64,000 nt of DNA from Girardia tigrina (Eukaryota): positions 14,606-78,605 of the forward strand of contig MQRK01237146.1 in assembly GCA_001938485.1 (NCBI GenBank), given 5' to 3'. Position 1 is the first letter of the stretch, and each line of letters starts with the position of its first letter. Made by a program: the position numbers and the translations under genes. The notes under the pieces are model-generated. The model was not told where the DNA came from, ran no database searches, and was given only the letters and a program-made list of their open reading frames with translations. Positions 10,959 to 64,000 of this stretch are shown here, in pieces.

Positions 10959-12655
10959 GTCAAATTGTTTGTTACCTTCCATTGAATAATCTATCTGAAT
11001 TATAAATACGCATCTTATAGCTGTTCCTATTTTAAGTTCAGTCCCGATGGAAACATTTTACTGGTGAATATGGGCGGCGAGCAAGTTTATATGTGTGATG
11101 CGAATATAATTCATTCACCTTTCTCCTTCAAAACATCCTTGGTCCCAGATTCTCCCGTTTGTGATTGCGACTTACTTTCAAAGCATAAATCGATCCCAGT
11201 GGAATATAATGGGATATTAGGGTGAGTCATAAGTTGTGGGGCACTCTTTCAAAAGTAATTATCTTTAATTACAACATGAATTGTCGAATCGATATTAATT
11301 GAATTTGTATATCGTAATAAAGCTCATAAACTGAAGTTTCAGTATTTGTAAGAAAATCATGATTATGTTCATTCTAATTTTTTAAACATTTTAGAAAATT
11401 ATGGAAAAATTTGAAATTAGAGTACTTTTGAAATTTTTCTAGAAAAAAGGTCTGAGTTCAAGGGCTGCCGTAAAGAAAATTNNNNNNNNNNNNNNNNNNN
11501 NNNNNNNNNNNNNNNNNNNNNNNNNNNNNNNNNNNNNNNNNNNNNNNNNNNNNNNNNNNNNNNNNNNNNNNNNNNNNNNNNNNNNNNNNNNNNNNNNNNN
11601 NNNNNNNNNNNNNNNNNNNNNNNNNNNNNNNNNNNNNNNNNNNNNNNNNNNNNNNNNNNNNNNNNNNNNNNNNNNNNNNNNNNNNNNNNNNNNNNNNNNN
11701 NNNNNNNNNNNNNNNNNNNNNNNNNNNNNNNNNNNNNNNNNNNNNNNNNNNNNNNNNNNNNNNNNNNNNNNNNNNNNNNNNNNNNNNNNNNNNNNNNNNN
11801 NNNNNNNNNNNNNNNNNNNNNNNNNNNNNNNNNNNNNNNNNNNNNNNNNNNNNNNNNNNNNNNNNNNNNNNNNNNNNNNNNNNNNNNNNNNNNNNNNNNN
11901 NNNNNNNNNNNNNNNNNNNNNNNNNNNNNNNNNNNNNNNNNNNNNNNNNNNNNNNNNNNNNNNNNNNNNNNNNNNNNNNNNNNNNNNNNNNNNNNNNNNN
12001 NNNNNNNNNNNNNNNNNNNNNNNNNNNNNNNNNNNNNNNNNNNNNNNNNNNNNNNNNNNNNNNNNNNNNNNNNNNNNNNNNNNNNNNNNNNNNNNNNNNN
12101 NNNNNNNNNNNNNNNNNNNNNNNNNNNNNNNNNNNNNNNNNNNNNNNNNNNNNNNNNNNNNNNNNNNNNNNNNNNNNNNNNNNNNNNNNNNNNNNNNNNN
12201 NNNNNNNNNNNNNNNNNNNNNNNNNNNNNNNNNNNNNNNNNNNNNNNNNNNNNNNNNNNNNNNNNNNNNNNNNNNNNNNNNNNNNNNNNNNNNNNNNNNN
12301 NNNNNNNNNNNNNNNNNNNNNNNNNNNNNNNNNNNNNNNNNNNNNNNNNNNNNNNNNNNNNNNNNNNNNTTGAACATAATGGACTTTATTTCGAATCATA
12401 ATCTTTATTGTGCGTTGTTTTATGAACATTTTAATTTTTAATAAAAAGTGCCCCACAACTTATGACTCACCCTAATATATAATATAATGTATATATAATA
12501 TGTATAATATAATGGAATATAATGTATGTGTTTGGGATCAGAAAAATGATAATATAATGAGTACGATTCGCGGAGTCAGAACTATTATCAATTGCTTAAA
12601 GTCGTATCTATCAGTTTGTTTCCTGGCGAGCAGTTGAATAGATAACGCAAACCTA
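10959..12655 (+). pseudogene. WDTC1: WD and tetratricopeptide repeat protein 1 (adipose/DCAF9) fragment, internally deleted and split by a Tc1/mariner insertion
   Basis: 10959-11211: SYFKFSPDGNILLVNMGGEQVYMCD (cf. WDTC1 FSPxGTELLVNMGGEQVYLFD). 12513-12655: VCVWDQKNDNIMSTIRGVRTIINCLKSYLSVCFLASS*IDN (cf. FIWEK..NLVRVLQGDESIVNCLQPHPSYCFLATSGID). In-frame stops present; TPR region absent. Confidence 0.8.
11217..12475. mobile_element. Tc1/mariner element, interior lost in assembly gap
   Basis: Perfect TIR TTAGGGTGAGTCATAAGTTGTGGGGCACT; TA TSD at 11215-11216 and 12476-12477; about 1.26 kb; Ns at 11482-12369. Confidence 0.85.
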
Positions 12656-13749
12656 ATTATGAGATCAAATTGTTCTGACAATGGAAAATTCTCTGAGCTT
12701 TTTTTGAATTGTTCTTCACCACGACCCGCCAACCCCTAATCTTTGTCATTGCGCGACTGCCACGCCAAGCCCGCTCTCGTACCAACAATTATTGTTTATA
12801 TTTCAAAATGTCTTTCATTGAGTCAAAAGACAATCAATGGCATTCGAAAATTTAAATCATTAGCTGAACTATTTATCACTATTTCTTGCTGCTCGAATTG
12901 ATAATTCATCGAGTCATTATTGCCGAGTATTATCGTGCTAGGCCGAGTTTGTGTGTCAGTATCGAATTGATTGAAATGGTTCGCTCTGATTGGTTTGAAA
13001 TGTCAAGTGATTTTTATTCACAATTTTCTGTTAGGCTTTGATTTCTTATGGATGATGATTTTATGGACATTGTTTTGTGAGTTACAAAAATTATTTTTTT
13101 TGTTGAAAGTCGATGAAAAATTATTTGATAAAATCAAATCAAATTTTTGTCGACATTTAATCGATTGATCGCCAATAGTAAATTGTGAAATTAAAAATTA
13201 ATTCCAAATATTGAAATTTGTTTAACTGGATCAATTGAATCAATTTTTTGTTGACGCCAATTTGAGGCAATCAATTCGATAGTTTGAAATCGCATCAAAA
13301 CAGAATTAATTGAATTAAAACTCGGTGAAATCGTTGATTGGTATTTTGTGAAATTATTTTTCTGATAAAAGAAATCCGTTTCTGTTTAAAAATCGATCAA
13401 GATAATTTATATTGTTCGCACCTCATTTGATAATTGAGATCGATCAATAGTGAATACAATTTAATTATTCCAATAAACCGAATCAATATAAATTTCGTGT
13501 CGAAAAATTTCCTCAAATTTTAATTGATAGAAAATTAATTATTCAATATAAATACAGAAAATTTCTCTCAATGAAATCGAATTCGACCTCTAAATCAAAG
13601 TCCAATTGATATCGAGTCGAGAGCGATCCAACTTTTTTTCTATTTTTTCTTGTTCAAATTTGAATTTTTGTCGAGCGAAAAGATTTTTTCAATAATTTTT
13701 TTCTGATTAGTTTTTAAAAATTAAAATAATATAAGTACAATTATTTCAT

Positions 13750-14410
13750 TTAATGATTTCATTTCCTCACGAAAAAAGCTTTTGAATTCCGATAAACCGA
13801 AATGGTTAATTATCGGCAATGAATCATTCGATATTGACAGTTTAGTTTATGGATTTTACAAGCATTTGTAATGTCGTCGATAATATCATACCGATTAGCT
13901 TTTATTCCAAGCAAAACGTGATGTTAAGACGCGATGTCCTCGAATGGTTGCAACCAAAGTTTGATATCAATGTCGTCAATGATTTGGTTTATTTGGATGG
14001 AATAGAGATGTGTTCCGATGATTGTCGATTTTAGGAAAATGTACGAGTCACTGGCGACCGTCATCGAGCACGGAACGATCACGTGTAACGTGCCAGAGAT
14101 CATTGATCATCGCGAGATCACATGCAGAATTCCTCCGGGTCAGCTCGAGACAGAGAGCATTCAGACAGTCAGTTCTTGTTCTACGCTCGTTCCGTAGTGT
14201 GTATTGACTGATAGATCACTGCCACAACAGGAGACTCTGCTGAAGCTTCTTTACGGAGCGATTCTCCTTGATACGGACTGTCTCGGTCTTAGCAATAATC
14301 GAACTACAAAAATGGATATCGGAGTGTCGAGTGAAATCGATCAATTGCTTTCCTTGATTAAAGATCAACGATTCGAAATTGATCAAAGATAAGACAATTT
14401 TCATGTAACG
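13750..14410 (+). pseudogene. PRUNE1: Prune/PPX1 exopolyphosphatase (DHH family) N-terminal half, frameshifted and truncated
   Basis: Collinear DHH motifs over three frames: LIIGNESFDIDSLV (GNExxDxDS), IIPIS...MLRRDV, EIIDHRE, TVSSCSTLV (GSCxTLV), LLYGAILLDT...RTTKMD. The DHH triad is corrupted and there is no DHHA2 domain. Confidence 0.85.
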
Positions 14411-14429
14411 AGTGAGAAAGTAATTTTTA

Positions 14430-15804
14430 TTTCCCCTGACCCCACTACCCACCCCCGAATACAGGGTGCTCCAGCCGCGCTGTATACGCTCTCTCATCAG
14501 ACAGAATATCAATTTTTTTGAACTAGCTTGTGTTTGTGAATATCGAATTTTGAATCAGCTGATGTTTTCTCTATTTATCATTTTCCTGATACCAAAATTA
14601 TTGTACAATTTCTTTTAAACAAAAAACTAGTAGTTTTTGTTAACCAAGTTTGAATTCATTCACAATTGATATTGTTTTTTTGATTTGATTGTTATTAACG
14701 ATAAAAAGAAAAAGATACTTTATGATCTCGACTCAAATAATGATGACCAGTCTGAAGAACAGAAAATTGGCCAAACACAAAATGTCTCTGATACCACCGT
14801 CCAGAATATTAAATGATTATTAATTTAGAAATTTTAAACGATTAGCAACCGAAGTGTAATTGAGAACTGTAAAACAATTCTGGTGGTGATGGTAATTAAT
14901 GTTTTAGTAGTAATCTTAAAGGTTCTAACATCGCCCTGTAGAAAAAATATTATCTACTGATATGTATTGTATATTGACATCTACAAGACTCTATACAATA
15001 TCATAAATATAATATTGATCTATACGATTTTCTTAAAAGAGAAGAACTTTTATTTTTGAAACACATGGAAGTCAACATAAGTAAATATTTATTCTCCATT
15101 TATGGCTCCTGTGGCTCCATCCTTTCTACAAGCGCTGTAGATCTTCGAAAAATATTTCATACGTCAACGAAACTAATATATCAGGGTACTAATTAGAGGG
15201 TACAAGACGAGGCGGAGAAAGAGGAATTCTTAGCCGAAAGAAGGAGACTGCAGTATTTTGTCTGAGCTTCAGGAAATAACAGAATAGACGGACCTTTAGA
15301 ACTTTTGAGCTTCATACAGAGAGATCACCTTGGAGACTCCGTCCCTAATATTGTGATTTTGCTGCGCATCTTTCTTACCCGGGCTATTAGCGTTGCCAGC
15401 TTCGAACGCTCGTTTTCCAAATTAAAGCTCATTAAGAACTATCTCCGATCTACAATGAGCGAAACAAGGCTTACAGACTTGGCAGTCCACTCCATTGAGA
15501 GGGAGCTTGCTGCTGAACTGAATTTTGATACTGTTATCAATAAATTTGTAGAAATGAAAGTGCGAAAAGTCCGCTTGTAAATTGTAAATAAAATTGTAAA
15601 TTTTGAAATAACTTCGTTACTTGGTAATTTTTAGTATGAGAATAAAAGTATTGCAAGAAAAATATGAAATTAAAGTAAATATTTTGTGACTCTATTTAAT
15701 TTTTAGTAAAAACAGTAATTAAGGGTTCCGAATAATCGGTTAGGGTTAGGGGGCGGCAAATTTTAGGACCGCCCCGGGCGCCAATAACAGTTGCTACGCC
15801 ACTG
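14430..15804 (+). mobile_element. hAT (Tip100-like) remnant with dimerization domain and right terminus
   Basis: ORF 15305-15580 PNIVILLRIFLT..SVASFERSFSKLKLIKNYLRSTMSETRL; terminus ...GCCCCGGGCGCC...GCTACGCCACTG at 15804; left boundary approximate. Confidence 0.8.
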
Positions 15805-17361
15805 CCTTTCTACAATACGTAGTTCTCTTATGGTACATTTTTTCGTAAAGCTCAACAATATTGATTTGTCCGGTTTAAAAAACAATTTAATTAAAACAAA
15901 TAAAATTAACAATAAAATCTTTATTATACATATTGTTAAATAAAACACCTGCTTAAGATTAAATAAATATTATAAAAATTTTATTTTTTTCTTGTTTTTG
16001 ATCAATTAATAACAAAAATCTTGTAATTATAATTTTATAATTAAAGACAAATTGATTTTAGTAAATAATGTTTTTCTAAGGATTGATGTAAATTATAATA
16101 TTTTTGTTAAATAAAAAAAATATTTCGCTTTTCATTAGATTTATTTAAAATATTTCAATTTATATTAATTATATATGAATATTTATTAATATTAATTAGA
16201 AACAAATCATATTAAAATAACATATGATTTTATTGAAGGATAAAACGTCATATTTTGACAACAGTTATTAAGATTCGATAAACTTAATCATAATAAAAAT
16301 TTGGTTTTCAACAGTTAAATAAAAATAATAATTTATTTAATTAATTTTGTTTTAATCTATCTAAAGAGATTGACATTATTTATATAATCGTTAAGTAATC
16401 AATTTGATATAAATAATTTATGTAAATAAATAAGTAACATATTTATTCTGAAAATAATTATTTAAAAATTATATTTATCCAATTGGTAATATTATATTTT
16501 ATTATTATTAATAATAAATATGATTATGAATATTTTATAAATTTTAATTTACTGTTTTCATTTTATAATTTTTCAAACTACGATTTTATAAATATAATTT
16601 AAGACTCATTTTTTTACAATTCAACAATTTTTACTATTTATAACTTTACAGCATTTATAATTTCAAATTTTCCCAATTTAAAAATTTTCCAATTTTTTAA
16701 ATAATAAGTTTACCATATCTATGATTTCACAATTATTTAATTTTGCGTAAATATATTTTTTTCACACTGATATTTTACAAATTTATTTAATCTTCATAAT
16801 TTACTAATTAAACAAATTTTAATGTTCAAAATATTTTCTGAACTACGAACCAACAACAATAATAATAATACTAATGATGGAAAACGAGCGTGGAGCCGTA
16901 TCCGTGAGGTATCGGTCCGAGGAGGAACTGTTCCTCATTCTCTCTAATCTCGTGTGGAGCTTTGTCATTGGGGCCCTCGAGTACATCAACCACCAAGCTT
17001 GGATCGACGAGAGATCGCCTTGCCACCAGCCCGGATATGCAAGAGTTTGCATCTGTCCGGAAAAAGGAGTTAATGCTCAACGAAACCGAAAAGCTCACCA
17101 AAATGGGTTGGCTCAAAATAATTCGAGAATAGGCAGCCATCTTGACTACAAAGTGACCGAGTTTGAATTATCCATACAAAAATAAACTCAACAACGGAAG
17201 ATGGAGTCATGATCAGCAAAGTGCATTTATTTATATGAAGCCGACGTGAAATTAAAGAATAACAACACGGGGACAGTTTTATTTTGTATTTACAAGACAT
17301 TTTTTTAAATCGTTATTGAATGTTTTATAAATCAAATGTTTTTTTCTCAATTGATATAGAT

Positions 17362-22053: not shown

Positions 22054-22089
<36 letters not shown>

Positions 22090-22730: not shown

Positions 22731-22999
22731 TTCCAAACTATTAAATTTCCAAGAATATTTATTAAAATTAATAATTTTACCCACTTCTTTAAACAAATTC
22801 AAAATAATTAAAAATGTTATAAAATTTTAAAAAATAAATTTAAATTTTTTAAGTTTTATTTATATCTATTTAAATGCTTTTCATTTTTAAAAAAATATTA
22901 AACTTAATTTCAATTGCTAAATTCAAAAATTTAAACTTATCAAATTATTATCACTTCGTTATTATTATTTTAATTATGTTCTAATAGTCCATCACTGTA

Positions 23000-24300
23000 T
23001 ATACAAAAAGAATAGCAATTTTCATCTGGGTTGAAGAATCAACATTCTAAGTTCAACATACTCAAATCAAAATACATCATTCAGACATTCATTCAATTTA
23101 AAATATTCTTCACAATCCCCATTTTTGATGTGGATCCCTTTGATGCGTCTGTTGACCTGGAATCCGCCATTGGTGTTTGCTTTTCTAGTTTTCGTAGACA
23201 ACCCAATTTTCATCGCACGTTTAAATCCGTTACAATCTCTCACGGCTGAATTTATGAAAAAGCCAAGAACAGTCATTAATTTGTTGCTTTGTTTTGCATT
23301 TCGTTGAGTTCACATTGGACCTTTTGACCACGTTTATTTTTCTTGTTCATTTACTGAAGGTTCCAAATAATTGGTTACATTAGAAGTCTAGAGTTCAGCA
23401 ACCAGTTCACGCGTTGTTTGGATCGGATCCGTTTCAATGGAATAGCGCTCCTTTATCAATCGTCGTTGGGCGTCTGCAACTTACTTGGTCTATTCCCGAT
23501 GTGGAATTTTGCATACCATTGGAAATATGTTCTTTCAGTCGTAGAATCTCGGCGGTTGCTAGCACAAATGTCTTTAAACGCTTCCGTTGATGTACGAATA
23601 AGTTTTAATTCGTTGAAAATCAAATTGCGAATTTCTTTACTCTTTTGACATTTCAACTTGTTTCTAAAATCAACAGCCTTTAATAAAAATACTATACAAG
23701 GCAAATACATATCGAAATGCTCCTATGAACGTATAATATCTAAAATCCATAGAAGACAAAATTAAATTAAAAACTTTATCTAAAGGTTTTTAAATAACTG
23801 ACAAAACTTTCTATCCAACATATAATTTAACTTCAAAATTAAAAAAATGTTTATAGCGCATTTTTTCATATGAAAAAATGTCCTGTTGTATTTGGTTTGC
23901 CCGTATATGTAGGCATCGATGTGAATGTTATCACACCTCTTTATGGCTACAAAACAGTTTCAAGACCCATAAACTATGTATCGTTGGAAAAATATCATTA
24001 ATCCTGATATCGACCAATAACCAGTAATCAAAGTCTTTCATCATCGAATGTTTGATTTTCGCAGTCTCACTCTCGGAAACTTACATAAAGTGATGGATCT
24101 TAGCTTCTGATGTAAGTCTAAAATCACTCAAGGTCATCCCGATTTGGGATACTCAAATCAAATGCTTAAAATTTTAATTACAGCTTTGGCGATTGAGAAT
24201 TTCATGCTAAAATTGATTTTGAGTTATATAGTCATGAATTTACTTGTATATCATTTAATATCTTTCATGATCATTTTAGACCCCAATCTATATCTCAAAA
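23000..24300 (-). mobile_element. highly decayed mariner-like remnants
   Basis: EIRNLIFNELKL.RTSTEAFKDIC...TTERTYFQWYAKF..G resembles a mariner HTH; ~24000-24050 KTLITGYWSISGLMIF resembles KxMxTVFWDxxG. Confidence 0.45.
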
Positions 24301-25229: not shown

Positions 25230-26235
25230 ACTAATTTTTAGAAATCGTGTGAAGAATGGTACTTAATGGTGTTTCATAATTTGTGTACTCGCACAATCAT
25301 GAAAGTGCAGAAGACTGAGAGGATACAGATGGACACTATCGACATTGAACTCCCGCTCCCCATGGATATCATTGCAAGCAGAAGACTTACCTACCATAGC
25401 AGGTTGGACACCTCTGATACACCAAACATTATGAGGTGTGTGTGGAGAGCAACAATGTCAATGGGAAAGAAGATCAGTGGGAGAAAGAAGCAAGCTCTCT
25501 CCGAATGCCTCAGAGTGAATATACAGTGGCTCTTTGGGGATAGTGCAAAGTATGAAGACTTCCTACACCACATTGTCCACAGAGACCCCACAATAGAAAT
25601 AAGGCAATACATCAACTCCTTTATAAGAAAAGGGAAGTAGAACAGAACAAGAGCCGATCTGCAGAAATTACTCAATGAGAGAGATAAACTCCTTCAATGT
25701 ACGATAGAAGATTGCTTTAAGGAGTTTGCCGAACAAAAGAAGCTAAATAGACATCTCAAGCGGGATCACACGGAATCAACAGTAAGCATCCAGCTTCAGC
25801 TCCCAGAAGATGAAAACCCGTTTAAATGTACCAAATGCAGCAAAGGTTACAAAACGAAAGGATGGTTCACTAGGCATCTGCGTAAAGATCATCGAATAGA
25901 AGCGAGGAAGAATATCAATGAACATCCGACAGAATCATCAGTCAAATCCAACCGAAGAAGCGACAATCCAAACGACTTATCCCGAAGAAACACATTTGTC
26001 TTTTATGATCGCAGATCCAAATGCGAGGGGAAAGTTCAAATGTCCCTTTCGCGGCTGTACCAAGTCCACCAATACAGCCAAAAAGGATGCTCAATCATGG
26101 TACCACAATTCATAATTGGTCGTTTGCAACAGGGAAGCCCAAGAAATTTCGGAGACTGAAGCACTCTAATATGAGCCTAGTGGCTCAATACCATTCGAAA
26201 GAGAAGGGAGGCCCACTTAATTGTGTTTAATGCAA
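25230..26235 (+). mobile_element. 5'-truncated RTE-like non-LTR retrotransposon with three C-terminal C2H2 fingers
   Basis: LMVFHNLCTRTIM...IIASRRLTYHSRL...GRKK (RTE post-RT region), followed by CTIEDC..LNRHLKRDH, CTKCSKGY..FTRHLRKDH and CPFRGC..MLNHGTTIH. Confidence 0.7.
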
Positions 26236-29300: not shown

Positions 29301-30118
29301 AGTACGAAAATCATGACTTGTCTTTTCAATCTACAAGGCTTCATGCATGTCATATTTGAATTGATAAACTGGATTAGATTTAATACATAAATGAGTTTTG
29401 ATTTATTAGAAAAAAAGTCGTTTTGACATTTAATAGTTACAAAGATTATTCTCAATGTTAAGTCGAACGAGATTCAATATTCTAAAAGTCGTTTGAACTC
29501 TTGTAATATTTTGTCAAAGATTTTTGGAAATGTAATCGAAAGTCAAATTACCATATCTAAAATTACCGTAGAGTGCGAAACTTAGTACATAATATAAAAA
29601 TATTAACAAAAATCTTATTTTTGAAATTAATTGGAAAAATGTTTAAATTGGTTGGGAAAAAAATTTTGGCTATAATTCCTTTTTTGAATTTTTTTGGATG
29701 ACATAATTAATTTCGCGTTGCAATTTAGAATTAGTTAGAATTAATTTAATTTTGTGTTGTTTTTTAAATTTAGTAGATAATTTAAATTACTAAATAATTA
29801 CTAAACCAATGGAATGAATTTCTCATTGGAATTAATTTTTCGTTGCTATTAATTTTGCGTTAGAATTAATTTCGCATTGGAATTTAAATTTGGAATACAT
29901 CTTTGCAATCCTTGGGTCTTCACCGAAAAATTGATAAATATTATCGATGACATGAAGTTAGAAAGCTTATACATACGAAATAACTTACAAACAACGAGTC
30001 AAAGTGACCCAAATGATGGCATTAATAAACGGAGACATAAGTCAATTGCAGTTTTTGTGCAACCACCCCAACATAATTGTTAATTTATTTTTTATTAAAA
30101 TTCGAAAGCCAATTGAAA

Positions 30119-30160
30119 ATATTTATTAATTTCGACGGTTTAACCGTCATCGTCAGAACA
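30119..30160 (-). ncRNA. minimal type I hammerhead ribozyme (PLE-associated)
   Basis: Minus strand: GTT-CTGACGA-T-GACGGTT-A-AACCGTC-GAAA-TTAATA-AAT. Confidence 0.75.
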
Positions 30161-30498: not shown

Positions 30499-30538
30499 GT
30501 TCTGACGATGACGGTTAAACCGTCGAAATTAATAAACG
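30499..30538 (+). ncRNA. minimal type I hammerhead ribozyme (PLE-associated)
   Basis: GTT-CTGACGA-T-GACGGTT-A-AACCGTC-GAAA-TTAATA-AAC: CUGANGA/GAAA core, 7-bp stem II, palindromic ATTAAT stem III. Confidence 0.8.
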
Positions 30539-30847: not shown

Positions 30848-32980
30848 CATGGTACATTAAAACGTAGAAAATAAAATGCGGAATGTGGAAACTAAAAATG
30901 TCAAAAACAAAAATATCGAAAATAAAAATTTTTAAAATAAAATATGAATAAAACATAGAAAACAAAGAAGAAAAGATGTTTATATTTAGACCAGAAAGTT
31001 TCAAATACAATTATTGTAGTTGAAGAGCTTGGTCTAAGCGAATGTTTCATTTAAGTCAAAACATTTTTTTTTAAAAAAATGTTAATTGTGGGCTAAAAAC
31101 TAATTATAATGAGGATGAAAACTTAGAAATGTATACAAGGGCGTTGTACATAAAAGCGATATTAGAAATGTATTTCTTTAAATGCAAAACATCATTTCAT
31201 ATTTATCTTCAAAAATATACTTTTATTTTTGAAATTTTATGTTGGATCTGTCTTAAATAAGATGGTTGGTTTAGTAATGTATCCAGTAGATATGTAGCAT
31301 TCTATAACACGACTTTTTAATGATATCCCACGATGATGATTTGTTAGATTTACAAAAAACTATATTATTCAAGCAAATTAGATGATCTAATTAATTACAC
31401 AAACAATGTTATTGAAGGTTTGAATAACTCATTCAAAACAATATGTGGTAATATAAATCTAACATTTAAAAATTTTATTTTGAAAATAAAGCACGAGGAA
31501 CGATCTGCTTATCAAAAATTTGTAATGTTGACTAATTGAGAAAATATACGAAGAAAAACAAAATATGTTGTTGTAGTGTCGGCGGATTGAAGCTTCGGTA
31601 GTGGGACCTGATTGTCTCATGTGCCCTCCTGGGTGGCAGGGTACTGGAATGCACCAAAGGGAGCCCCGATCGCCGACTCAAAAATCTTACCGTATTTTGA
31701 TGGCGTGTACAAAACGCTGAAGGGGCCGCCATCACACCCGCAAGTAATCTTGGCACCGACGTTGGAATTGATCGCGTGTTGTCGCCGGAGATCGCAACTC
31801 GATCGTGTCATTCTTGGCAAATCGGTCACTTGTTGTTTTGACGAATTATCAATTTAGAAATAACTTCCATTTTTCATTATTTCCGGATATTTGTCAAAAA
31901 TATCTAGTGATTTGAGAACGTCGATAAAGCTGATATTAAGATGTCATTCGTGAATATTTATTAAGACATCAATTTATGAATTTAAATTTTTCAAAAAAAA
32001 CGCAAAAGTAATTTATTTCGGAATGCATTAAAACAATCGTTTGTCAGTCAATATTATAAGATTTTCTTGTTTTAAACGAAAGATTAATTGAATTTTTATT
32101 GGAGCGTAATAATAAAGATCCTACAACATACATTTTTGAAATGGCTGGTTATATTTATAATTAACAAATTATGGCTTCTATATTGATAATATTAATAATT
32201 ATTTAATAAACATACTGTTGGGGTTTCGAGAGATACATATGAGCACTTTTGACAAAATTTTATGAAAAAAAATTTAAAATTATTCTTTTGGTAAAATTAT
32301 TAATTTCAAACAAAATTTGGAATTTAAAATTAAAAATATTTTATTCTTTGTTTTATTTTATCAATTTTCAAGGCTGATGAAAACTACTATATAAACAGCA
32401 TCAAATTTAGTTTAGTTCGCCCAAAAATTCTCTTAACAAGAAAACAAAAACAAAGGAGTCAAGTAAATTTATTATAAAAATTTATTTTTATTTATTATTC
32501 TTTAAAACATTTTTTATAAAACCGAAAGCATCCCGTATGGGAGAAAAGGGTTTTTATTAAAAATTTTAACTATCGTTCGTTTTGGAGATTCACAGTTTTT
32601 ACTGTAATCTGTTAACTCGTACGAAATATTGATTTTTGTTTGTTCTGTCATCAATAATTGAATTATTATTATTATTTTTGACGTGTTAATTTTGTTATTT
32701 GAAATAAAGTTTCATAAAAGAATTTGTGTTCAGCCTTTATATATTTATGTTGGAAGTCCTTACTGATTAATTGGAGTCAGATTAAAGATTAAAGATTTGT
32801 GTTTTTAAAAAGTACATATTTAAAATTAAAGATTTTAATACCCAACAATACTTATTTTTTTTAACTATATTCATTTATTTATTTAAAAATATTAATTCTT
32901 TCACTTATTTTCTTGCTAAGTTTTTCAAATGGTTTTGAGACATTTATTGACGTTCATTTTTCGACTTTATAACGTCGTAT
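30848..32980 (+). mobile_element. MULE remnant containing a host-gene fragment
   Basis: 9-bp direct repeat CCTAGTAGG at 30839-30847 and 32981-32989; degenerate TIR. Transposase tail YTNNVIEGLNNSF...RRKTKYVV breaks at 31572 and resumes as LNERLIEFLL...YIFEMAGYIYN* from 32072. Confidence 0.75.
31573..31970 (+). pseudogene. probable DEAD-box RNA helicase N-terminal fragment, decayed
   Basis: Ordered degenerate motifs across frames: LLGGRVLECTKGS (motif I region), ILPYF, PQVILAPTLEL (motif Ia, APTREL), SVTCCF, VDKADIKMSF (motif II, DEAD..xMGF). Confidence 0.5.
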
Positions 32981-47819: not shown

Positions 47820-47865
<46 letters not shown>

Positions 47866-48233
47866 AAAAATAGNNNNNNNNNNNNNNNNNNNNNNNNNNN
47901 NNNNNNNNNNNNNNNNNNNNNNNATATATATATATATATAAAACAAAAAATAGCCATTTTTCCAAACATTTATTTTTATTTTGCAATACTAGTTTCGCCA
48001 TCTTCAGTTGACTAATTGAAATTTCAGATTTAAGTCCCTGTTATATAGCGGTAGACTGTTACGCAATACTCAATTTAAGGCTTTTTTTATTTTAATTTTT
48101 TTAAATAAAAAAAATAACAAGAAAAAACGTCTAAAAATCAATATTCAAAATTTTAATTATTTATTCAAAAAGAAAAAAAAGACACAAAAAAGAAGAAAAC
48201 TTAAAAGAAACAGAAGACAAAAAAAACTAAGAA

Positions 48234-49100
48234 TTAAAATATTTTAATATAATTTGAGGAATCACTTTGAACATTTAAACATGGTTTATAATGCTTAATT
48301 AACAATGCTTTAGTGATTATCCTCTCCTTATAATTGTCAAAATTTTTACATAAAACTTTAAATTCTCTATCACTCCCTATATTTTCTCGATCCCTACAAT
48401 TCAATATATGATTAAGAATGGAACTGTTTCGACTCGATTGAGTGTGTTCAGAAATTCTAGTTTGAAGATGACGGTTTGTCTCTCCAATGTACAAGGCTTC
48501 GCACGGGTGACATTTAAACTGATATACTATATTTTCCTGCACATTCAATGGAGTTTTTGATTTATTAGAAAAGAAACCAGAAACTTTATTTGTGGTAAAA
48601 ATTACCTTCAATTTAAAAATTGAAGAAGTTCTTTTCATTAATGAATTTTTGAAATCTTTTGCTCCCTCAGAAAATGGTATCTTTAAGGTGATGTTTAACA
48701 CATTCTCAGTGTTATTTGGAACTTCGATTATGTTGTGACTTTTATTATTTGATTTCCTAAATATGGAGTCAATGGCATCTTTAATAAGCTTATTTACATA
48801 GTTTTTATTGTAGCCATTCTTTTCTAATCTATTTTGAAGGTCGTTTAAACCATCGTCCACATTCCCATATGAGGAAGATAAATTCCATACTCTATGCACT
48901 AGTCCATTTACCATAGTTCTGTTATACTTAGGGTCACAAAAGTTTTTGGGACCACTGTATAATCCAGTATCAGTGGATTTTCGAAACACCTGTGTACTGT
49001 TGTTCATCGATATTCTTTTTATGAGGACGTCCAGAAATGAAATACTTTTAGATTTTTCAATTTCACAAGTGTATTTCATGTTTGGGTGTAACCCATTCAT
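48234..49100 (-). CDS. Penelope RT C-terminus plus GIY-YIG endonuclease (partial ORF, uninterrupted)
   Basis: LHPNMKYTCEIE..ISFLDV..VFRKSTDTGLY; IVYQFKCHPCEALYIGETNRHLQTRISEH...SILNH (CCHH); ALLIKHYKPCLNVQ. Confidence 0.9.
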   Translation of the reverse strand: MNGLHPNMKYTCEIEKSKSISFLDVLIKRISMNNSTQVFRKSTDTGLYSGPKNFCDPKYNRTMVNGLVHRVWNLSSSYGNVDDGLNDLQNRLEKNGYNKNYVNKLIKDAIDSIFRKSNNKSHNIIEVPNNTENVLNITLKIPFSEGAKDFKNSLMKRTSSIFKLKVIFTTNKVSGFFSNKSKTPLNVQENIVYQFKCHPCEALYIGETNRHLQTRISEHTQSSRNSSILNHILNCRDRENIGSDREFKVLCKNFDNYKERIITKALLIKHYKPCLNVQSDSSNYIKIF

Positions 49101-49300
49101 AAATTTTAAAAACTCCTCAATATCACCCTTATTTTTTTCTTTCTGAATAAATAATTAAAATTTTGAATATTGATTTTTAGACGTTTTTTCTTGTTATTTT
49201 TTTTATTTAAAAAAATTAAAATAAAAAAAGCCTTAAATTGAGTATTGCATAACAGTCTACCGCTATATAACAGGGACTTAAATCTGAAATTTCAACTAGT

Positions 49301-49335
49301 CAACTGAAGATGCCAATATGGCGAAACTAGTATTG
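49301..49335 (+). ncRNA. minimal type I hammerhead ribozyme (PLE-associated)
   Basis: CAA-CTGAAGA-T-GCCA-ATA-TGGC-GAAA-CTAGTA-TTG; palindromic ACTAGT stem III; GUA cleavage triplet. Confidence 0.8.
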
Positions 49336-51558
49336 CAAAATAAAAATAAATGTATGGAAAAATGGCTATTTTTTGTTTTATTAACCCGATTGCCATTGGA
49401 ATTAATTGAAAATATATATTTACATCAATATTACACATAATAATATTACTTTTTAGTGGTTATAGAAATTTAATAAATCCTTCAATTTTTTTAATAATTA
49501 ATAAATTATTAAATGTATTTTTGTCAACGTTTTAAATTATTTAAATTCTTCAGTTACAATTTTTTATTCTTGAAATATCAATAATAAGATATGAAAATTA
49601 ATATATTTTAAGATATTTACTTCCACGAGCTAAAATTTATTTAGTAATCATTTTAATTAAATTTAGAGTGTATGTAGTTAGTTTAAACTTTGTCTAGCTA
49701 AATATTTATTTTAAAATTGAAAAAAATTAAAATAAAAAATCCCCAAACAATTTTTTATAAATTTTTAAGTGTAAGAATTAGAATGATAAAAGTAGATATT
49801 TTGATTTCTAATATTAAATTATCAATATTTTAATATTATTTCATATATCATTTATTTATAAGATACAGTTAAAGTGAAAAATCACATAAATCACATAAAA
49901 GTTGTTTGAATATTCAGAAATATTCAGAAATGATGATAAAATACATTTTGGAAATTTTTTTTTACAAATTATATTGAATGAAGAGGAAAATATAAACGCC
50001 ACCAATGACACTCCTAGTAATAAGAAAAATGTCAATTTAAAATAATAAAAAATAAAACAAAATAATTCAGTATTTTAAAAGCATATATATCAGTATATTC
50101 AGAAAATTTAAAACTACATCTGTGAGGAATATTTTAAATTTGGTATGTTGAAATTGGTTTGTTGAATTTTGTATGTTGAGTTTAGTATTTCGAAATGTGT
50201 TTCTCACACCCAGATGGAAAACTGATATTTTAGATGTTCACGATAAATAATTATTGGAGTATAATTTGCATTTTAAAGTACAGCATAAGATATTTAAAAA
50301 ACTTTAAAAATATTAAATCGTTTCAAATTTTCATATTAAAATTTAAATAAAATAAATAGTTTTAACTAAGTTTTGAATTAAATAAATGTTCTTTCTTTAC
50401 ATAAAATCATTATTTAAATAAAATTAATATGTAGATAAAATTATTACTAAAATTACCAAATTTGAACTGTAAAAATAAAATCTGAAAATAATAAAAAATT
50501 TGTTCGAATAATTGTTTATTAACAAACAATAACTAAAATTTATCAATTTAGAACGATGTCGAATTACGAAAGCTTTGCTGAGAGTTGTCCAAAAGACAAT
50601 TCTGATTGTATTGAAAATAAAAGTTTGAAAACCCATGTTGGTGTTCTTAATAACATTAAAGTTGAAAACCTTTTAAAATTAAAGTTTTATTTCAAAATCA
50701 CCCAGAAAAAACTAATGTGTTCAATTAAAACATGGGCTTAAATATATAAAAATTAAAAAAGATATTTCAAGAAAAATACTGAAAAATAAACAACCCAAAA
50801 AGATTAATAAATGTTTAATTCAATTCTACTTAAAATAAAATATAAACACATTTTCAAATATTTAATTTAAACTAATGAATTATTTAAAAGAAATTAATTT
50901 AATTAAAAACTATTGCAATAATTTTTTTAATTTTTAAAAAAGAAAAAGGATTAACCAAATAAATGAAATTGGCGATTAAAGTTATTTAAGAAAATGAGAT
51001 AAAAATTTGTTTAAATTTATGTAATATCATTATTAAAAATTTGATCATCATGAATTCTAGTTCGAATATTGAAATTAATATAAGCTCAACTAACACAGAG
51101 AAAGCTAAATTCAGAAAATATTTTAGAATATCTTTTTAGAGTATTTGGTCATTATATATCCACGTTTTATTATCCATTTCAATGACATTAAATATGAATA
51201 GATAATCAAAAGGTAGAATAAACCGGGATTGAAAGTATTAAATACATCTAATTATGATTGTGACACTTCAACGTAAATATTTTTACTTATAGAACTATTA
51301 TTCAAAAATTATACATAAAAAATTAAAATAGATATAAAAAATTAAATATTTTAAGTAAAATTCAGGATGTTCTTTAAATAAAATAAAGTATCAACTAAGG
51401 CCAAAAAATATGTGGACGCTAATAATTCAAGAATGTCATAAGTTTGTTTTTCATAAATTAAAATTAAAAGATTCAAGTATTTCAATTAGGTCTTTAAAAT
51501 TTTAGCAATCATAAACTTAATATGAGTATAGCTTTATGAATTACCATGTGCTAAATTA

Positions 51559-52819: not shown

Positions 52820-55170
52820 TTTTCGAATTAATATTGTTTTGCATTATGAATACAAAAGTGGTTTTAAAGCATCTGGAACAATGGGGAAAGTACAAAAAAC
52901 TATTATGGAAAGTTCTACAATAGATTAAGTCGTACCTTTTTAGTTTTTTTGCAAAATTTAATCTGGAATTCCTAAAATCTTAAACTTTGAAGGAAAATCA
53001 TGCAAAGAGTTATTGGTATTTGAAGATGAAGACAATCGTAAGTGTTAAGATTAAAATCCATGAGTGACATGTACAGGAATCGGGGAAATGTTCAAATCAG
53101 ATGAATCGAAAGCCAAAACGCGTTTTCTTGTTACTGGTTTTAGTATAAATATTTTAAAATGAAAAAGTACAAAAAAAGACTTTCTGAGAGAAAGACTATG
53201 GGAACGATTTGGTGGAATTCAAGGAAGTCGTTCATGGGAATTATCGTCCTCTAGAAGAAAATTTTCTGTTGACGAGTATTGTCCTACAATTCATATAGTT
53301 CAATAAAAGGTGCTGGAAAGTCGAGCTTTAATGGCAAACATAAATTGAATTCTTGTACTCCACTATCACGCATGACCATATATCAGAAATAAGACCAACG
53401 ACAAGTTAATGGTAGTTGGCTGAGAGATTTAGTCACATCTGCGTGTAGACCAGATATTACTCCAATAGATTACCATTGTTTTCAATAGTTCTCAAATTTC
53501 CAGACTCACTAACATTTATTAGGTGTATAACTTAGTTTTTTGGATTTTCTAAGAGATGATGTAACCTTTGTAATAAGCATTATTTTACAGTCGTACGTAC
53601 AGATTTTTAAAGTGCTGAAATCGAGGCATTAAAATGAAGTAGGTCATTGACCTTAAATGCGTCATAAACATATTTTTAATCACGTTTTAGCATGACAACT
53701 TTCATACCAACAAAACAGCACTTGCGGGAAGCACTACTGTTTTGCTTTAATCAAAAGAAAAAAGCTGCAGACAGTTTTCGGCTTCTTGAAGAAACTTATA
53801 GTCAACATGTACCAACTCCACAGACTTGCGAGAAGTGGTATAAACGTTTCAAAAGTGGAGAATTTGATGTAAGTGACAAAGAGCGTTCCGGTCAACCAAA
53901 AAGATTCGAAGATGAAGATTTGGAATCATTACTGAAGGAAGATTCTACTCAAACAGAGAAAGAGCTTGCAAAACAGTTAAANNNNNNNNNNNNNNNNNNN
54001 NNNNNNNNNNNNNNNNNNNNNNNNNNNNNNNAGATTCGAAGATGAAGATTTGGAATCATTACTGAAGGAAGATTCTACTCAAACAGAGAAAGAGCTTGCA
54101 AAACAGTTAAATGTTACTCAAGCAGCCATAAGTAAACGTCCACATGCTATAAAAATGATTCAAAAAGAAGGAAAATGGATGCCACATGAATTGAATCAAG
54201 CCAACATTGAAAGTCGATTACTGATATTCAATTCATTGCTTACAAGACAACGAAGATGGTCGTTTTTGCANNNNNNNNNNNNNNNNNNNNNNNNNNNNNN
54301 NNNNNNNNNNNNNNNNNNNNGTGACTGGAGATGAAAAATGGATTTATTATGTTAACTCTAAACGCAAGAAATCGTGGGTTCATCCTGGCGAACCGTCCAC
54401 GTCAACAGCAAAAAGAAACATTCATGGAAGCAAGGTTATTTTGTGCATTTGGTGGGATCAGAAAGGTGTACTGTACTATTAGCTGCTGAATTCGAATGAA
54501 ACTGTTAATGCAGAACGTTACCAACAACAGTAAATAAAATTGAACGATGCATTGAAGGAAAAACGTCCTATTCCAGCCAACAAACAGCGCACATTGATTT
54601 TGCCCCATGACAATGCTCGGCCACATGTCTCAAAACAAGTAAAAAACACGTTGGAAGCACTTAGATGGGAAATTATACCGCATGCTGCCTATTCACCAGG
54701 TTGCGCCCCATCAGATTATCATCTGTTCCGATCAATGCAAAGCGCTCTTCGGGACCAGCACTTCAGAAACCAGGAACATATAAAAAAAGGCTGGAACAAT
54801 GGATCGCATCAAAAGACCAAAACTTTTTTTTGTCTGAAAGATGGTCGAAAGTCATAATTAACGATGGAAAATATTTTGATTAGAATAAAACTTATTATGT
54901 CATATAAATAAACTTGTCTGTTCTGCAAAAAAATCCAAAAAACTAAGTTATACACCTAATAATAAATGATGATGATGTCCAAATAGAATTGAATCAGGTT
55001 TTTTATCTAAAAGCTCCGGCTTCTATTTAATCGACATGATCTCGTTTGTTGATGGCAGAATGTGGTTGATGCGAATGAGGGATATTTTGGAACAAAAAGT
55101 TGTTTGGTAGATTATACAGGCTTTTAGAATTGGTTGAAATCCTTTTTAATTTGTGCTTGACGCTAATAGT
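52820..55170 (+). mobile_element. old mariner interrupted by the younger mariner copy B
   Basis: LHYEYKSG, KTMGTIWWNS, LVLHYHA*PY and PDITPIDYHCF lie before 53517; NDDDVQIEL...WQNVVDANEGYF follows after 54961. Confidence 0.7.
53519..54959 (+). mobile_element. mariner copy B (same family as 1811-3086), inactive
   Basis: Same TIR as copy A; TA TSD at 53517-53518 and 54960-54961; ORF pieces 53692-54883; two N-gaps. Confidence 0.95.
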
Positions 55171-58020: not shown

Positions 58021-58071
<51 letters not shown>

Positions 58072-58279
58072 CGTTTGAATGCTAAAAATAATTTTTGATC
58101 CTAAAACTAACCAAAAAATATTTCAAAAAAAATTGAATTTTCACTAATTATTATTTATATTCTGAGTTAAGATTTCTTCTGGCCATGAACCTTACCATTG
58201 TTTAACACATCCTTTCTATTTAATATGTACACAGATTCAAACAAATAATATAATTTTTTCAATGGATTTAATTATATTT

Positions 58280-60290
58280 CATTCAAATGTACTTACGTAT
58301 ACTGAGAACATCATCCTTAAATTTGCCCGAAGGATCGTGTTTCCTCGTTTGCCAATGTCTCCTTGGACATTCGATTACGGTAACGAGTAGTACAAATAAG
58401 CACACTTTTATCAGCATTTGATAGCGATTGTGACCAAATGTGGTTGAAGGTGATGGCGTAAGTGATATCGATTGACGATTGCTGGCCAAGATGCCACCAC
58501 TGAGTCACCGAAATTCAAATTTTAAAATGAAAACTGTTCATTTGTAGGCCTGCGTGGTGTGACAAATCTGCTCACATACGCACACGTACATTCATTGTTA
58601 CGGTATCCGTACTTAATTTTTTCAAACACACATCACTTTTATGTAATAATTAAATAAAAAATATTTTTTAAAGTTTATTAGAAATTAAATTAATTAAAAA
58701 CTAAATTATTTTATAATATGATAATCGTAAAGTATCATAATGACCAGTTATCATTATTAAACGAATATAATTAATTTTTTTCATTTAATTAAAAATTGTG
58801 ACGTAAAAATGACGTAAAAAAGTATAATGTAGGCTGAACTTGTTGAGGTTTATGAATTTGTACTAATGTTTATAAAAATCTTTATTAATAATAATAATAA
58901 AAATAATAAGTGGTGTACCAATAAGTGTGACTAATAGAAAGAACTTTGTGAACACAAATACTTTTTATGTTTACTGTTATGAGCATCAATGTGTTTTTCG
59001 ACATTTTATTAATACCACTAATTGAATTGTTCTCAGGATGATTTTTGAAAAAAAACGAATTAAGCACCGTTTATTATTATTAACAACATCACCAGTTTCT
59101 TGACTGGTAAAATGATTCGAAACAGCTTTGAATGCAGTCACAATAACTTGAACCTCTGGCACTAGCGAGGCGAGACTTTCTTAGCACATTTAATTACGGA
59201 AGATAATATCCCATTCAGTATGTATTTTCCGGAAACAAAGCGAGAGTCAGCAGAGTGGAAACTACCCGAAGAGAAGAAATCTTTGAAAATGTGAACAAGG
59301 ACAAGTCATGGACGAGCTAAGATGTTTTACTTTTTCTGCAATCATAAAGGTGTTATTTTCAAAGATTTCAAGGATAATTATATAATATTAACAACATCAA
59401 TATGAGGTTTACAACATTTATTAATATCACAAGCGCATTCACTATTTGACATCTCTCTTGATCAATATATTTCTGAGTTCAAACTAATTATTTTCACTAA
59501 ATGAAAATCTGTTAATAAAAATTATTAATTATAAAGAATCTAATTGGTTGAAATTAAATCTAAACATTTTTAAATAAAGAACATATTAAATTAATATATT
59601 AAAATTTTAAATTACATTAAAAAATAAATAATACATTCAATAATTATTTAAAATCTTTTTACTTTAAAATTAAATTAAATTATTTTTAATTAGTAGGAAT
59701 CAAAGAAAATATCAATCATCCATCTGTGTAGGAGAGGCACAATCCGAATCAACATACAACATGCACAATATCAACACACAATTCAAAATATTCCTCACAA
59801 GGGCATCATCATAAATGGTGCCTATTACAACCATCTCGTGGCAACCGCCATAAAGAATAGAATGAAGCAGAGAAACACACCACTATGGTTTCTCCATAGC
59901 AATGCCCCAGTGCAGATATCGGGAATTTTTCCGGCCACAATTGAAGATACTAGACTATTGATTGCGGATCATCCGCAGTACAGTTCAGATTTGACATCGA
60001 GAATTTGTCACCTCTTCAGACATATAAAGAACCATTTGAGATGCATCCAATTTTGATCTAAAGACGATTTGAAGGTTACCGGGAAAGTTTACTTCGCCAC
60101 ATGCCCAAGGAATATTTCAGAAAGGCGTTTTCTAAATTGATTATTCCTTGAGGGAAGGGTGGGGAGCGAAATGGAAATTATGTTGAAAAATGATGCACAC
60201 ATACGTTAAGCTTGTTGTATTATAAAAATGGTCCTTTTTGAAAGTCGTTTTTTTTCTTCAGATTTGGTACTTATGCAACGCAACACGTAC
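58280..60290. mobile_element. rearranged mariner: 5' part on the minus strand (58280-58590), catalytic part on the plus strand (59150-59370 and 59800-60290)
   Basis: FLAHLITED...YFPETKRESAEWK; WFLHSNAPVQ; HPQYSSDL...HLFRHIK. Both TIR-like ends read ...CACGTA on the plus strand (~58588 and ~60288). Confidence 0.6.
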
Positions 60291-60997: not shown

Positions 60998-63025
60998 TCA
61001 GAGTACATCGATTAAATTTGATCGATAAGAGCAAATTCTAAAGAATTTCCAACGAAAATAATTTATTAAAACAAAAACATTGTGTTTCTCTATCAAACAA
61101 ATCTTTCATTTAAAAAGGGAATGTTTATACAGATCAGAAATTCTAACAGAGAAAAAAATATATACAATACCAATTTTGGAATTTAAATAATTTGTTATTA
61201 TTGTTACGTTTATATTACATTTGTCGTTTGTGAAATTTATTTTGTTGGGTATTTTGGAAATTTTCTCCTTATTTATGTGAGTGGAAATGTGGTGGTCCAC
61301 AACAACCCATTTGGTACTATTACCTAGATCTAAAAGGTAATATCTTACAATACTATTTTATGTTAAAGTAATATAATAAATACCATTTGACTGACTAGAC
61401 TGAAAGATTTCATCACCTGAAATGTATAAAAAATTGGAAAATAAAAACACAAAGTCGTTATTTGACGATAGTGGTATCTAATGTGTTAGACAGCTGAATG
61501 ACAACATTAGAATTTTAAAAGACTAGTTTCAGTAAAATTGTGTGATACAACCTGCGGAAATTCAACGAACATACAATTCACAAGGATTGAAGCATTGTAT
61601 TTTAAATTTTTGTAAGAAGTAGTTCCGGGTTACAGTAGGAGAAGGTTTGCTTGATATTTATTATGCGTTTTAAGATCCGTTGAATATGTTGTAATATAGC
61701 TGTAATATTTAGACCGATAATTTAAAATGATTACTTAATAAACAATAAATCACGAACCCTTCTTAATACGATTTATATTAAACTGAGTAAAATTAGGGTT
61801 CTTTTAATTTTGTTCAACTTATTGTAAATTACTCTTAAAATATCAGATATTATGTTTTTCAAGTTGTGCTTTTGAATTATTCAAATAAATTTTAATTGAT
61901 TTAAAATTTAAAGAGGTATGATGTATAAATATTGATAAAATGAATAAAATGGATAAATTTTGAGAAATAGAGATGATAATTTTATTTTTTGAAAAAGGAT
62001 ATTTTTTAATGTTTTGAAAGGTGATAATTTTTGACAAAAAATGTAATTATATGCATTTAAATTTGAAGAACGAGATATTCATCGCGAAAAGAAAAATATA
62101 TCAATGAAGTAGAAGAAGAGGTTTATTGAAAAAATTGATTTTTGTTCAGATTTTCGGAGTCGAAAAATTCTGTACAAATCATAATATTATAAAGTAAAAA
62201 GAAATAATGAATGAAACTTTCGTGTTCATGAGAATATCCGGATCCATAGAGAGACAATCCACTTTCCGATTTATTTTAAATACTGTAGGACCGAAATTTA
62301 AAAAAGATTGCAAAATTAAGAACTATGATACAGTTACGAAATCAGATCACCTCGTCTAATTTGAGATTGGAATCAAGGTAGTGGATAGATCTCAGTTCAG
62401 GTTGATCAAAGGAACATTAAGTGTTCGGGATTCGAACATTTTAATTATTAAATTTTTGTTTTTTATATTAATTATTATGATTATTATATTCATTTCAAAT
62501 TGGAGAAAGTCAAATCAAATTGAAATGGAAAATTAATTCATTATTTTTTGTCATTTTGAAATTATTCGATGGAAATTGAACAATTTGAATTGTAATTTTG
62601 ATTTTTTAGTTATTGAGAATTGATAGTTTGAAATGACCTTGAGTTTTGTTTAGCGGAATAAATTGATGAACTTGTAAAAACGATAGAGATTTTGATGAAA
62701 ATAAATTCGATACGTGACTTAATATCGTTTTGAATTGATTAAAGAGTGAATTTCTTTTCTGGATGCTGAATTATGCTAATCGTGATGTTAAAAAAAGACC
62801 GCAAATATTAAAATTACAAAAACATTAAATGATACGATTTTTGATGCGCCGATTCTTCTCGTCGATTTTATCAAACTCGAATCGATTTTAGATTGAAATT
62901 TAAATAGAAATAATCAAATAAACGGCGCAGTATTTCTGTGTGATCGGCGAATAGAGAATTGTTCCAATAAGATTTGTTTTTACAAAGCGAAATGTGAATC
63001 AATCAATTCGAAAATCGATACTGAA

Positions 63026-63700
63026 ATGGTTAAAGTATTCTGTGAAAGATTCGAAAGATTTAATGACAAATCGAATTCGATAAGCGTTAATTTTCAAACG
63101 CTTCATCCATTCAAACCGTCATCGACTAAATGCATGAAAAACATCCGATATAATGCAATCGATTGTCGGGCCGGATTACTGGCGTCGATCGCTGGCAACG
63201 ATGTGGATTTCTTCAGTGTCTCTTCGTGCGAGAGAGCGAGTATTGAATCGGTCGACTTGAGGGACGGGCTCGTGAGTATCGATCCACTTTTCTCTATTAA
63301 ATTCCGGTTGATGTCGCCTGGATCGAGTTCAGTTGCAGTGGATCGATTCTGCTGGTCGCCTTGTTGACCGATGATGGTCGATTGGTGACTGTCAGGTTGT
63401 TCCGTGTCGAGAGATCACTGATTGAGAGTGGAGAATCAAATTTTTGTGAATATACACTGAATACCGAGAGTCAGTTGGTCGATTTGCGGTGGCATCCAAA
63501 TGAGAAAGAGTCGTTTTTGATGGTTTTGAACGATACGGTCTCACTGTGTTGTGTGAAAGAAAACAAAATCGATATTATAAATCAGAAATCGAATGCGTTT
63601 TGTGTATCCTGGAGTCCGAAGGGATTTGTCATTAATCAATACGACAATTTGATGAATGAAAAGCGGTCGAGTGCAATCAAAGACATTATTGACTCTCTCA
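63026..63700 (+). pseudogene. NUP214: nucleoporin Nup214/Nup159 N-terminal beta-propeller fragment, frameshifted and internally deleted
   Basis: LVDLRWHP...FCVSWSPKG|FVINQYDNLMNEKR versus NUP214 VIDMKWNP...SVCWSPKGKQLAVG..GTVVQY..LQEKK. The KQLxVG block is missing and there is a frameshift near 63360. Confidence 0.75.
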
Positions 63701-64000
63701 GAGCATCTCTATGGGCCAAGATGCTGCCTTCTTCCCGAAAATTCGGAAAGATTAAGTATTTATTATCTGATCCACTCTCCTGGACCGCATCTCACACCAA
63801 CCAGTTACCAGTCTACTTGCTACCGATCGTCCAGTGCAATGAATATATCAAACGCACTCAATATCTGAAATGAATAAAAACCTAATTGGTGTTATCGTCG
63901 ATGCTATTATATTTTAAAACAGAACTCGAATAAAATCTATACGGAACCCATTTACCATTGAGAAATAGTAAGATCAATTTTTTGATGTTACATTTAACTT

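Follow-up and report, generated by a model that had tools for sequence, protein, structure and literature searches.

What raises a question at this locus is how pieces of several unrelated genes came to lie among transposons. The locus is a stretch of 64,000 nucleotides from Girardia tigrina (positions 14,606 to 78,605 of contig MQRK01237146.1, assembly GCA_001938485.1), hereafter called the window, which is AT-rich (~27% GC), contains seven assembly gaps, and is crowded with mariner, hAT, long terminal repeat (LTR)-type, and Penelope-like remnants identified with Pfam. A sequence-only reading of this DNA had proposed a recurrent process that scatters broken host-gene fragments into transposon territory. 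Our results support the existence of a recurrent process moving pieces of host genes, except that an end sequence shared by the fragments points to capture by a mobile element and against generic break repair or extrachromosomal circular DNA (eccDNA). The fragments were probably carried by non-autonomous mobile cassettes that form one family and share one end. A single end of ~120 nt, GC-rich and stopping at a fixed CA, follows pieces of unrelated housekeeping genes in sense orientation, and a cassette composed of a leader, a coiled-coil frame, and a NUP214-like piece is present in several copies that have different flanks and have evolved neutrally. The shared end, together with the differing downstream flanks and neutral divergence of the NUP214 package, argues for a family of mobile gene-carrying cassettes, rather than for independent repair scars or a single duplication.

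The shared end is most easily followed among database proteins. An exhaustive search with the NUP214-like protein P0001 returned seven proteins, none of which is a full-length NUP214 and three of which share just its final 41 residues. A profile of this tail then recovered seven proteins among 1680 candidates: two are NUP214-like, while sideroflexin, a CTP-transferase-like protein, MAP65/PRC1, an SNF transporter, and PTPA are represented once each, and transposon domains are found in none of the seven (0/7). The cellular part is 5', the element end is 3', and both have the same sense in all seven fusions, as is also the case for L001 and for the WD40 and PRUNE pieces of the window. Five of the carriers match Pfam families, and in each of them the gene part starts at profile position 1-2 but ends prematurely (at 226/319, 91/133, 135/477, 328/524, and 165/293), which is not the 3'-complete, 5'-truncated, poly(A)-bearing form of a processed pseudogene. 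The PRUNE and NUP214 pieces of the window are likewise N-terminal gene parts. Since the leaders of the different genes are unrelated, just one end is shared. In all carriers the tail stops at one common point and the residues beyond it are unrelated, a pattern that we read as the putative fixed end of an element at independent insertion sites. Viral and prokaryote collections yielded 12 pattern matches and one tblastn match to the end sequence, all chance-like, and nothing for P0001 or P0013; an Atlas search with P0013 gave no lead.

Within the window, a copy of the shared end firmly closes the WD40 piece at 12787. The terminal 19 bases of the end in L001 (1474-1596), a DNA contig carrying one NUP214 copy, have a sole window site at ≤3 mismatches (12769-12787, 16/19), which lies directly behind the WD40 piece and was equaled in 0/100 shuffles. 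The whole module (12670-12787) was equaled in 0/500 shuffles and ranked first in four of six profiles built from outside sequences, as well as in the six-profile sum; it was also the top window match of a protein-level hidden Markov model of the end, at 5.2 bits, a score reached by 6/30 shuffles. A diverged copy probably closes the PRUNE piece at 14499, as its similarity to L001 was equaled in 0/500 shuffles (for a region picked by eye) and it ranked second with the L001 DNA profile and tenth in the six-profile sum. Both ends point the same way, one behind the other, and no inverted partner separates them. Perhaps a deleted copy closes the NUP214-like piece at 63802, but this is a weak candidate: 63736-63802 was equaled by 8/500 shuffles against the WD40 end, 245/500 against L001, and 12/500 in a further test, and it fell outside the top 20 of the profile ranking. 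No convincing end sequence was found on either strand of 13 other islands, the best results being 0/100 and 1/100 at 58250-58620 among 52 tests. We did observe that 58490-58594 and the shared end align along their full lengths (0/100 local shuffles, one of the 52 tests); no gene piece was recognized upstream of it and it may be a mariner leader.

The NUP214-like cassette is the one for which copies can be compared. The best Pfam family for 63081-63735 is the NUP159/214 propeller and a language-model search returned beta-propeller only, so the NUP214 fragment of the sequence-only reading stands as a beta-propeller with NUP159/214 as its best family (E 1.3e-4), at a Pfam score below the curated cut-off. 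The adjoining 62450-63025 had been described as upstream non-coding DNA; however, 62790-63080 is a decayed coiled-coil reading frame, which in other copies is open and in frame with NUP214 and which is common to two other proteins. A query of 63301-63627 matched two proteins among 109 candidates, one of them representing a cluster of five, and the NUP214-like database copies have 96-100% mutual identity. The five tail-bearing copies are 98-100% identical and show four different read-throughs past the end, the fifth case being a stop or the limit of the contig, which places the same chimera at several sites. From 220 pattern matches one DNA locus was recovered, that of L001, in which the join of gene and element lies in genomic DNA with no intron. 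Compared with window 62585-63460, L001 matches in 769/940 columns, including the leader and coiled-coil frame ahead of NUP214. The two differ by 100 substitutions in 866 bases, spread over codon positions as 24/25/20, and the ratio of nonsynonymous to synonymous substitution rates (dN/dS) is 0.6-0.7 (p 0.32). As this is not different from neutral, the package has diverged neutrally, and the even codon-position spread together with the neutral dN/dS shows that the chimera was duplicated in one piece when it was no longer a gene. Deletions accumulate from copy to copy: 107 codons of P0001 are missing in L001, and 54 nt of L001 are missing in the window. A separate candidate, a retained intron at 63627-63707 (81 nt present in the window and missing in P0001), was set aside because the segment is open and in frame and resembles NUP214 coding sequence; the difference is more probably a deletion in the other copies. 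Directly upstream of the NUP214 cassette in L001, positions 1-200 hold a minus-strand piece that we take to resemble a Penelope-type reverse transcriptase.

The PRUNE piece was confirmed by its colinearity with P0007, a DHH/DHHA2 protein whose residues 25-225 match 13806-14377 in three frames (E 4e-12); P0007 was the sole database match, one of 193 candidates. Compared with this distant relative, ~200 PRUNE codons run without an intron-sized gap, which agrees with the earlier remark that most fragments have no evident introns. The fragment formerly called WDTC1 is WD40 in nature, as 12524-12694 matches a designed WD40 protein (E 0.0015), while the more specific name WDTC1 is a tentative one based on motif resemblance. 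It consists of two halves, rather than a single fragment, and a transposon entered the WD40 fragment, not the fragment the territory of the transposon.

How the cassettes formed can be stated tentatively. With somewhat less than even confidence, we propose an RNA-level fusion of gene 5' parts to the end of a retroelement, followed by re-mobilization. The shared end would be the 3' recognition end of a retroelement, whose reverse transcriptase would start at this end and continue on a host transcript, reached either by a template switch or through prior trans-splicing or ligation. Copying that ran to the 5' end of the transcript would produce 5'-complete, 3'-truncated, intron-free pieces without poly(A), and a transcribed fused copy would keep the recognition end and could be copied again, with deletions and additional pieces being gained in the process. 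We infer the RNA step, the enzyme involved, and the host genes as donors. RNA-level fusion is favored by the polarity of the cassettes, in which the gene start is kept, the gene end is lost, a fixed element end lies downstream, and no intron is seen, as is the case for chimeras of mRNAs and long interspersed elements (LINEs).

Several observations weigh against this proposal. The length of the end is fairly constant and is thus more like a terminal repeat than like random LINE truncation, a leader of 700 nt, as found ahead of PRUNE, would make a long 5' untranslated region, and symmetric inverted ends would also yield the sense orientation. As the parent genes were not found, the intron-free state of the pieces does not establish intron loss. 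The WD40 piece is presumably a middle and C-terminal gene part, rather than a 5' part. The set of database fusions is biased, in that only open, in-frame, intron-free fusions are visible, and the JGI and ENA contigs behind them may be DNA or RNA. No autonomous, reverse transcriptase-coding element carrying the shared end was found in the window or among the seven tail matches. Four ends were available for the tests of element class, namely the WD40, PRUNE, and NUP214 ends of the window and that of L001. In agreement with the sequence-only reading, none is followed by a poly(A) or simple-repeat tail (the A fraction is 0.25-0.35 in the following 20 nt), and none has a target duplication above chance, the longest matches being 0-8 nt, for copies that are old or cut by contig ends and whose left ends were not located. 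Lastly, there are weak inverted copies upstream of three of the four ends.

These inverted copies bring up the possibility of a Pack-type DNA transposon, in which the end is one terminal inverted repeat (TIR) of a non-autonomous element and genomic gene pieces are taken up at the DNA level and moved by a transposase. We regard this as unlikely, though well within consideration. It accounts for the constant end length, the long leaders, the sense polarity, and the weak inverted copies, and multi-copy cassettes of one structure with different flanks are also known from Ssk-FB4 and multicopy Pack-TIRs (PMC8277862). A candidate bounded by TG...CA spans 10637-12787, with an inverted identity of 19/30 (0.006 expected in the searched region and 0/100 local shuffles, albeit as one of 160 tests), and 17/30 positions match upstream of both the window NUP214 end (0.04 expected) and the L001 end (0.047). 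However, the PRUNE end has no such partner (14/30, with 3.1 expected by chance), G-skewed leaders inflate chance matches, no target duplication above chance is seen at any of the four ends, and the flanks of 10637-12787 show none beyond 2 bases on direct reading. In the young L001 family just 11/20 terminal bases match as an inverted end (0.9 expected), whereas a working inverted repeat should match far better there, unless the left end is off the contig. The ~200 PRUNE codons without an intron-sized gap also argue against uptake of genomic DNA. An improbable variant of retroposition would have the end as the last part of a short LTR, as in a terminal-repeat retrotransposon in miniature, with an mRNA replacing the interior via two template switches and the coiled-coil representing the start of gag. 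The CA terminus and missing poly(A) would fit, as would the partial, more often 3'-truncated retrocopies, multi-gene chimeras, and re-mobilization reported for the LTR route (PMC5131818). A coiled-coil frame, which is common to other proteins, does precede NUP214, but it has no gag match; direct upstream copies of the end, as expected of a second LTR, were not found in any of three tests (16, 55, and 4 of 60 shuffles). Nor does a TGG, which would mark a primer site, occur within 8 nt after any of the four ends.

Helitrons are marked by a 3' hairpin plus CTRR and an A|T target. Transport by a Helitron or by a Penelope-like element, as once suggested, has scarcely any probability left, being already largely refuted by the hallmarks of these elements, even though both are known carriers of host pieces, Penelope-like elements are present in the window, and Terminons are arranged in head-to-tail arrays that include captured genes (PMC6431247). 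The shared ends finish in CA followed by A, G, or C rather than T, they are not CTRR, and their fold is no better than that of shuffles (z-scores -0.8 to 2.0); they contain no tRNA, no Rfam family, and no stable fold. There is no hammerhead match in Rfam, no motif in L001 or at 12787, and on direct reading a word resembling the core at 14500 has no stem to close it, unlike the Penelope ends in the same window, which show the hammerhead core motif. Very improbable as well is the independent arrival of each fragment by break repair, eccDNA, or an old duplication, with the end being a common small repeat beside the fragments by chance. Internal deletions are plentiful, the PRUNE and NUP214 ends of the window are diverged and statistically modest, and five other islands lack the end; nevertheless, the sole close copy of the end in 64 kb closes a gene piece, the fusion partners are host genes in 7/7 cases though transposon frames dominate the window, and the NUP214 chimera was duplicated in one piece. 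The alternative accounts considered at the outset fare no better, as one old segmental duplication is incompatible with flanks that differ between copies, standard retrocopies would have poly(A) and target duplications, and chimeric scaffolding does not apply to PRUNE and its two neighboring end sequences, which lie on one gap-free contig. Compatible with any of these explanations, though quite doubtful, is a foreign origin of the donors, with the TCGA-rich pieces deriving from another organism with compact genes. It is suggested by the contrast in composition and by the lack of a close full-length parent, which was found neither among the 109 and 193 candidates nor when 1.84 billion representatives were searched exhaustively. 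Yet the host's own proteins may be missing from databases, the contrast is to transposons and AT-rich filler instead of host genes, and the WD40 and DEAD pieces are not TCGA-rich.

Returning to RNA-level fusion, we compared the cassettes with known gene-capturing elements. The closest in layout are mRNA/LINE and small-RNA/LINE chimeric retrogenes (PMC13174262; PMC2104539), in which the cellular part is 5', the element end is 3' and in sense, transcript starts are favored, and three-part chimeras occasionally arise; among the 17 mRNA/LINE-1 chimeras of the human reference, 15 map to transcript starts and most are in sense (PMC13174262). In contrast, the cassettes here have no poly(A), no target duplication that was found, an element part of ~120 nt, and no LINE frame, they place six to eight genes on one end, and the chimera has spread secondarily. 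Pack-TIRs and Pack-MULEs, such as Ssk-FB4 (PMC8277862), similarly combine the 5' region of a host gene and upstream DNA in a multi-copy non-autonomous element with differing flanks, whereas here the second inverted end is weak or absent, there is no 9-10 bp duplication, and no retained intron is seen. LTR-mediated retroposition (PMC5131818) shares partial, tailless, multi-gene retrocopies that are moved again and the CA terminus, but not the features that the cassettes lack, a paired direct LTR, a primer site, or a recognizable gag/pol remnant. Terminons and other Penelope-like elements (PMC6431247) are alike in having a fixed 3' end, head-to-tail neighbors, a coiled-coil frame, and captured host genes, and differ in that the end of the cassettes has neither a hammerhead nor a telomeric repeat. 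Thus, the cassettes resemble known gene-capturing elements, yet fail one defining test of each family tried, and we file them under none. No description of a shared-end cassette element was found in the open-licence literature, and the family is probably undescribed.

In plants, the capture of genes by mobile elements is a familiar phenomenon. In animals it has been reported as rare, with 370 Pack-TIRs in 100 genomes (PMC8277862) and the 17 mRNA/LINE-1 chimeras of the human reference (PMC13174262), while in the present case the databases show pieces of six or more genes attached to a single end, and the 64 kb contain two or three cassettes. If such a density held genome-wide, the cassettes would constitute a large exon-shuffling engine, might give rise to small RNAs directed at host genes, and would inflate gene counts in annotation; the shared end provides a ready handle for recognizing cassettes across the genome. 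A bolder version, which we consider rather unlikely, is that a tailless class of cassettes with one short end captures 5' parts of housekeeping transcripts and re-copies them at the density of this window, such that a large share of genes would have decayed, shuffled genomic copies, with donors that could even be foreign.

Table 1. Positions in the window of the gene pieces, end sequences, and islands discussed in the text.
Feature	Position	Strand	Basis
Weak inverted copy of the WD40 cassette end; possible left end of the WD40 cassette	10637..10733	-	19/30 identical
WD40 gene piece, first half	10950..11213	+	best E 0.05 to WD40 proteins (10986-11222)
Transposon inserted later into the WD40 piece, which it splits; 36-bp inverted ends, largely assembly gap	11214..12478	.	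35/36 identical; gap 11482-12369
WD40 gene piece, second half	12520..12690	+	E 0.0015
Shared GC-rich end, clear copy, closing the WD40 piece	12670..12787	+	shuffles and external profiles
TCGA-rich segment and leader ahead of PRUNE	12788..13750	+	TCGA composition; no Pfam match in 12808-13038; not homologous to other leaders
PRUNE pseudogene piece, N-terminal DHH region, frameshifted, without intron-sized gap	13751..14390	+	P0007 match
Shared end, probable diverged copy closing PRUNE	14395..14499	+	shuffle tests, profile ranks
GC-rich island, candidate for a decayed DEAD-box piece, without a significant cassette end	16870..17200	+	score 34.0
GC-rich island, DEAD-box motif Ia look-alike, unconfirmed	31560..31860	+	score 28.8
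AT-rich, G-skewed leader; 3' part from 62585 common to the L001 copy	62446..62790	+	168/198 aligned bases identical
Decayed coiled-coil reading frame	62791..63080	+	shared with P0001, P0008, P0010, P0013
NUP214-like beta-propeller piece, one frameshift near 63310	63081..63735	+	Pfam, copy alignments
Possible internally deleted shared end, weak, after NUP214	63736..63802	+	shuffle tests

The sequence-only reading had counted five fragments, which is too high on present evidence, as three hold up (PRUNE, NUP214-like, and WD40). Its DEAD-box fragment, which we took to be 31560-31860, is unproven, since the motif Ia look-alike there has a score reached by 15/25 shuffled profiles, and the transmembrane (TM) tail is unproven as well. 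Neither the TM tail nor the islands at 41800 and 62200 had a credible Pfam or PDB match, and PDB searches found no NUP214, macrodomain, UBX, or helicase. A short motif at 62198-62356 presumably recalls a macrodomain (GDAP2-like), with no Pfam or PDB support. The island at 16850 contains a motif II look-alike whose score was reached by 1/25 shuffled profiles, which is suggestive of a decayed DEAD-box piece; its match to the shared end is not significant (7/100 shuffles at best). The frameshift-aware DEAD test employed five bacterial helicases and was insensitive, with the PRUNE control scoring 182. At the left edge of the 16850 island, position 16875, a stretch weakly resembles the final 19 bases of the end in inverted orientation (13/19).

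The fragments had also been described as mostly CpG/TCGA-rich. This is true overall, as the pooled fragments contain 12.7 TCGA per kb (71 in 5597 nt) versus 2.9 per kb elsewhere (164 in 56608 nt), a comparison in which the trait itself was used to pick some islands and in which the contrast set consists of transposons and AT-rich filler, with no host genes within the window. It does not extend to every piece: the excess comes from PRUNE, NUP214, their leaders, and two islands, with observed/expected ratios of 4.4 for PRUNE, 5.4 for NUP214, and 8.0 for the PRUNE leader, whereas the WD40 halves and the DEAD piece are not enriched (0-1.2). Two DNA runs from one study contain 0.60 and 0.51 of the words of 12400-15000; these are possibly the assembly's own source and were not counted as support. 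None of the runs listed as containing these words is of RNA.

Several other features were observed among the transposons of the window. A Penelope-like GIY-YIG fragment at 47938-49381 is situated between inverted terminal repeats (95% over 250 nt) with a hammerhead core in both arms (49304 on the plus strand and 48007 on the minus strand), which Rfam did not report and whose fold is not better than that of shuffles. The inverted pair at 30094-30564 (150 nt, 95%) carries the same kind of core in each of its arms, encloses no coding frame, and is perhaps a minimal Penelope derivative. One mariner family is present in two copies of ~95% identity (1809-3090 and 53517-54963), the second of which holds 50-N gaps with duplicated ends, a trait of the assembly. 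An LTR-type remnant with a zinc knuckle and protease (26337-28378) lies inside inverted arrays of a 21-bp minisatellite, and an inverted pair of 75% identity, 11 kb apart (22760-23091 and 34031-34346), possibly marks the termini of an old large element. Decayed frames at 25242-26159 include two C2H2 zinc fingers, are not TCGA-rich, and are probably transposon-derived. Two weak frames, one zinc-finger-like (9216-9503, E 0.004) and the other leucine-rich-repeat-like (44093-44401, E 0.045), could be further gene pieces.

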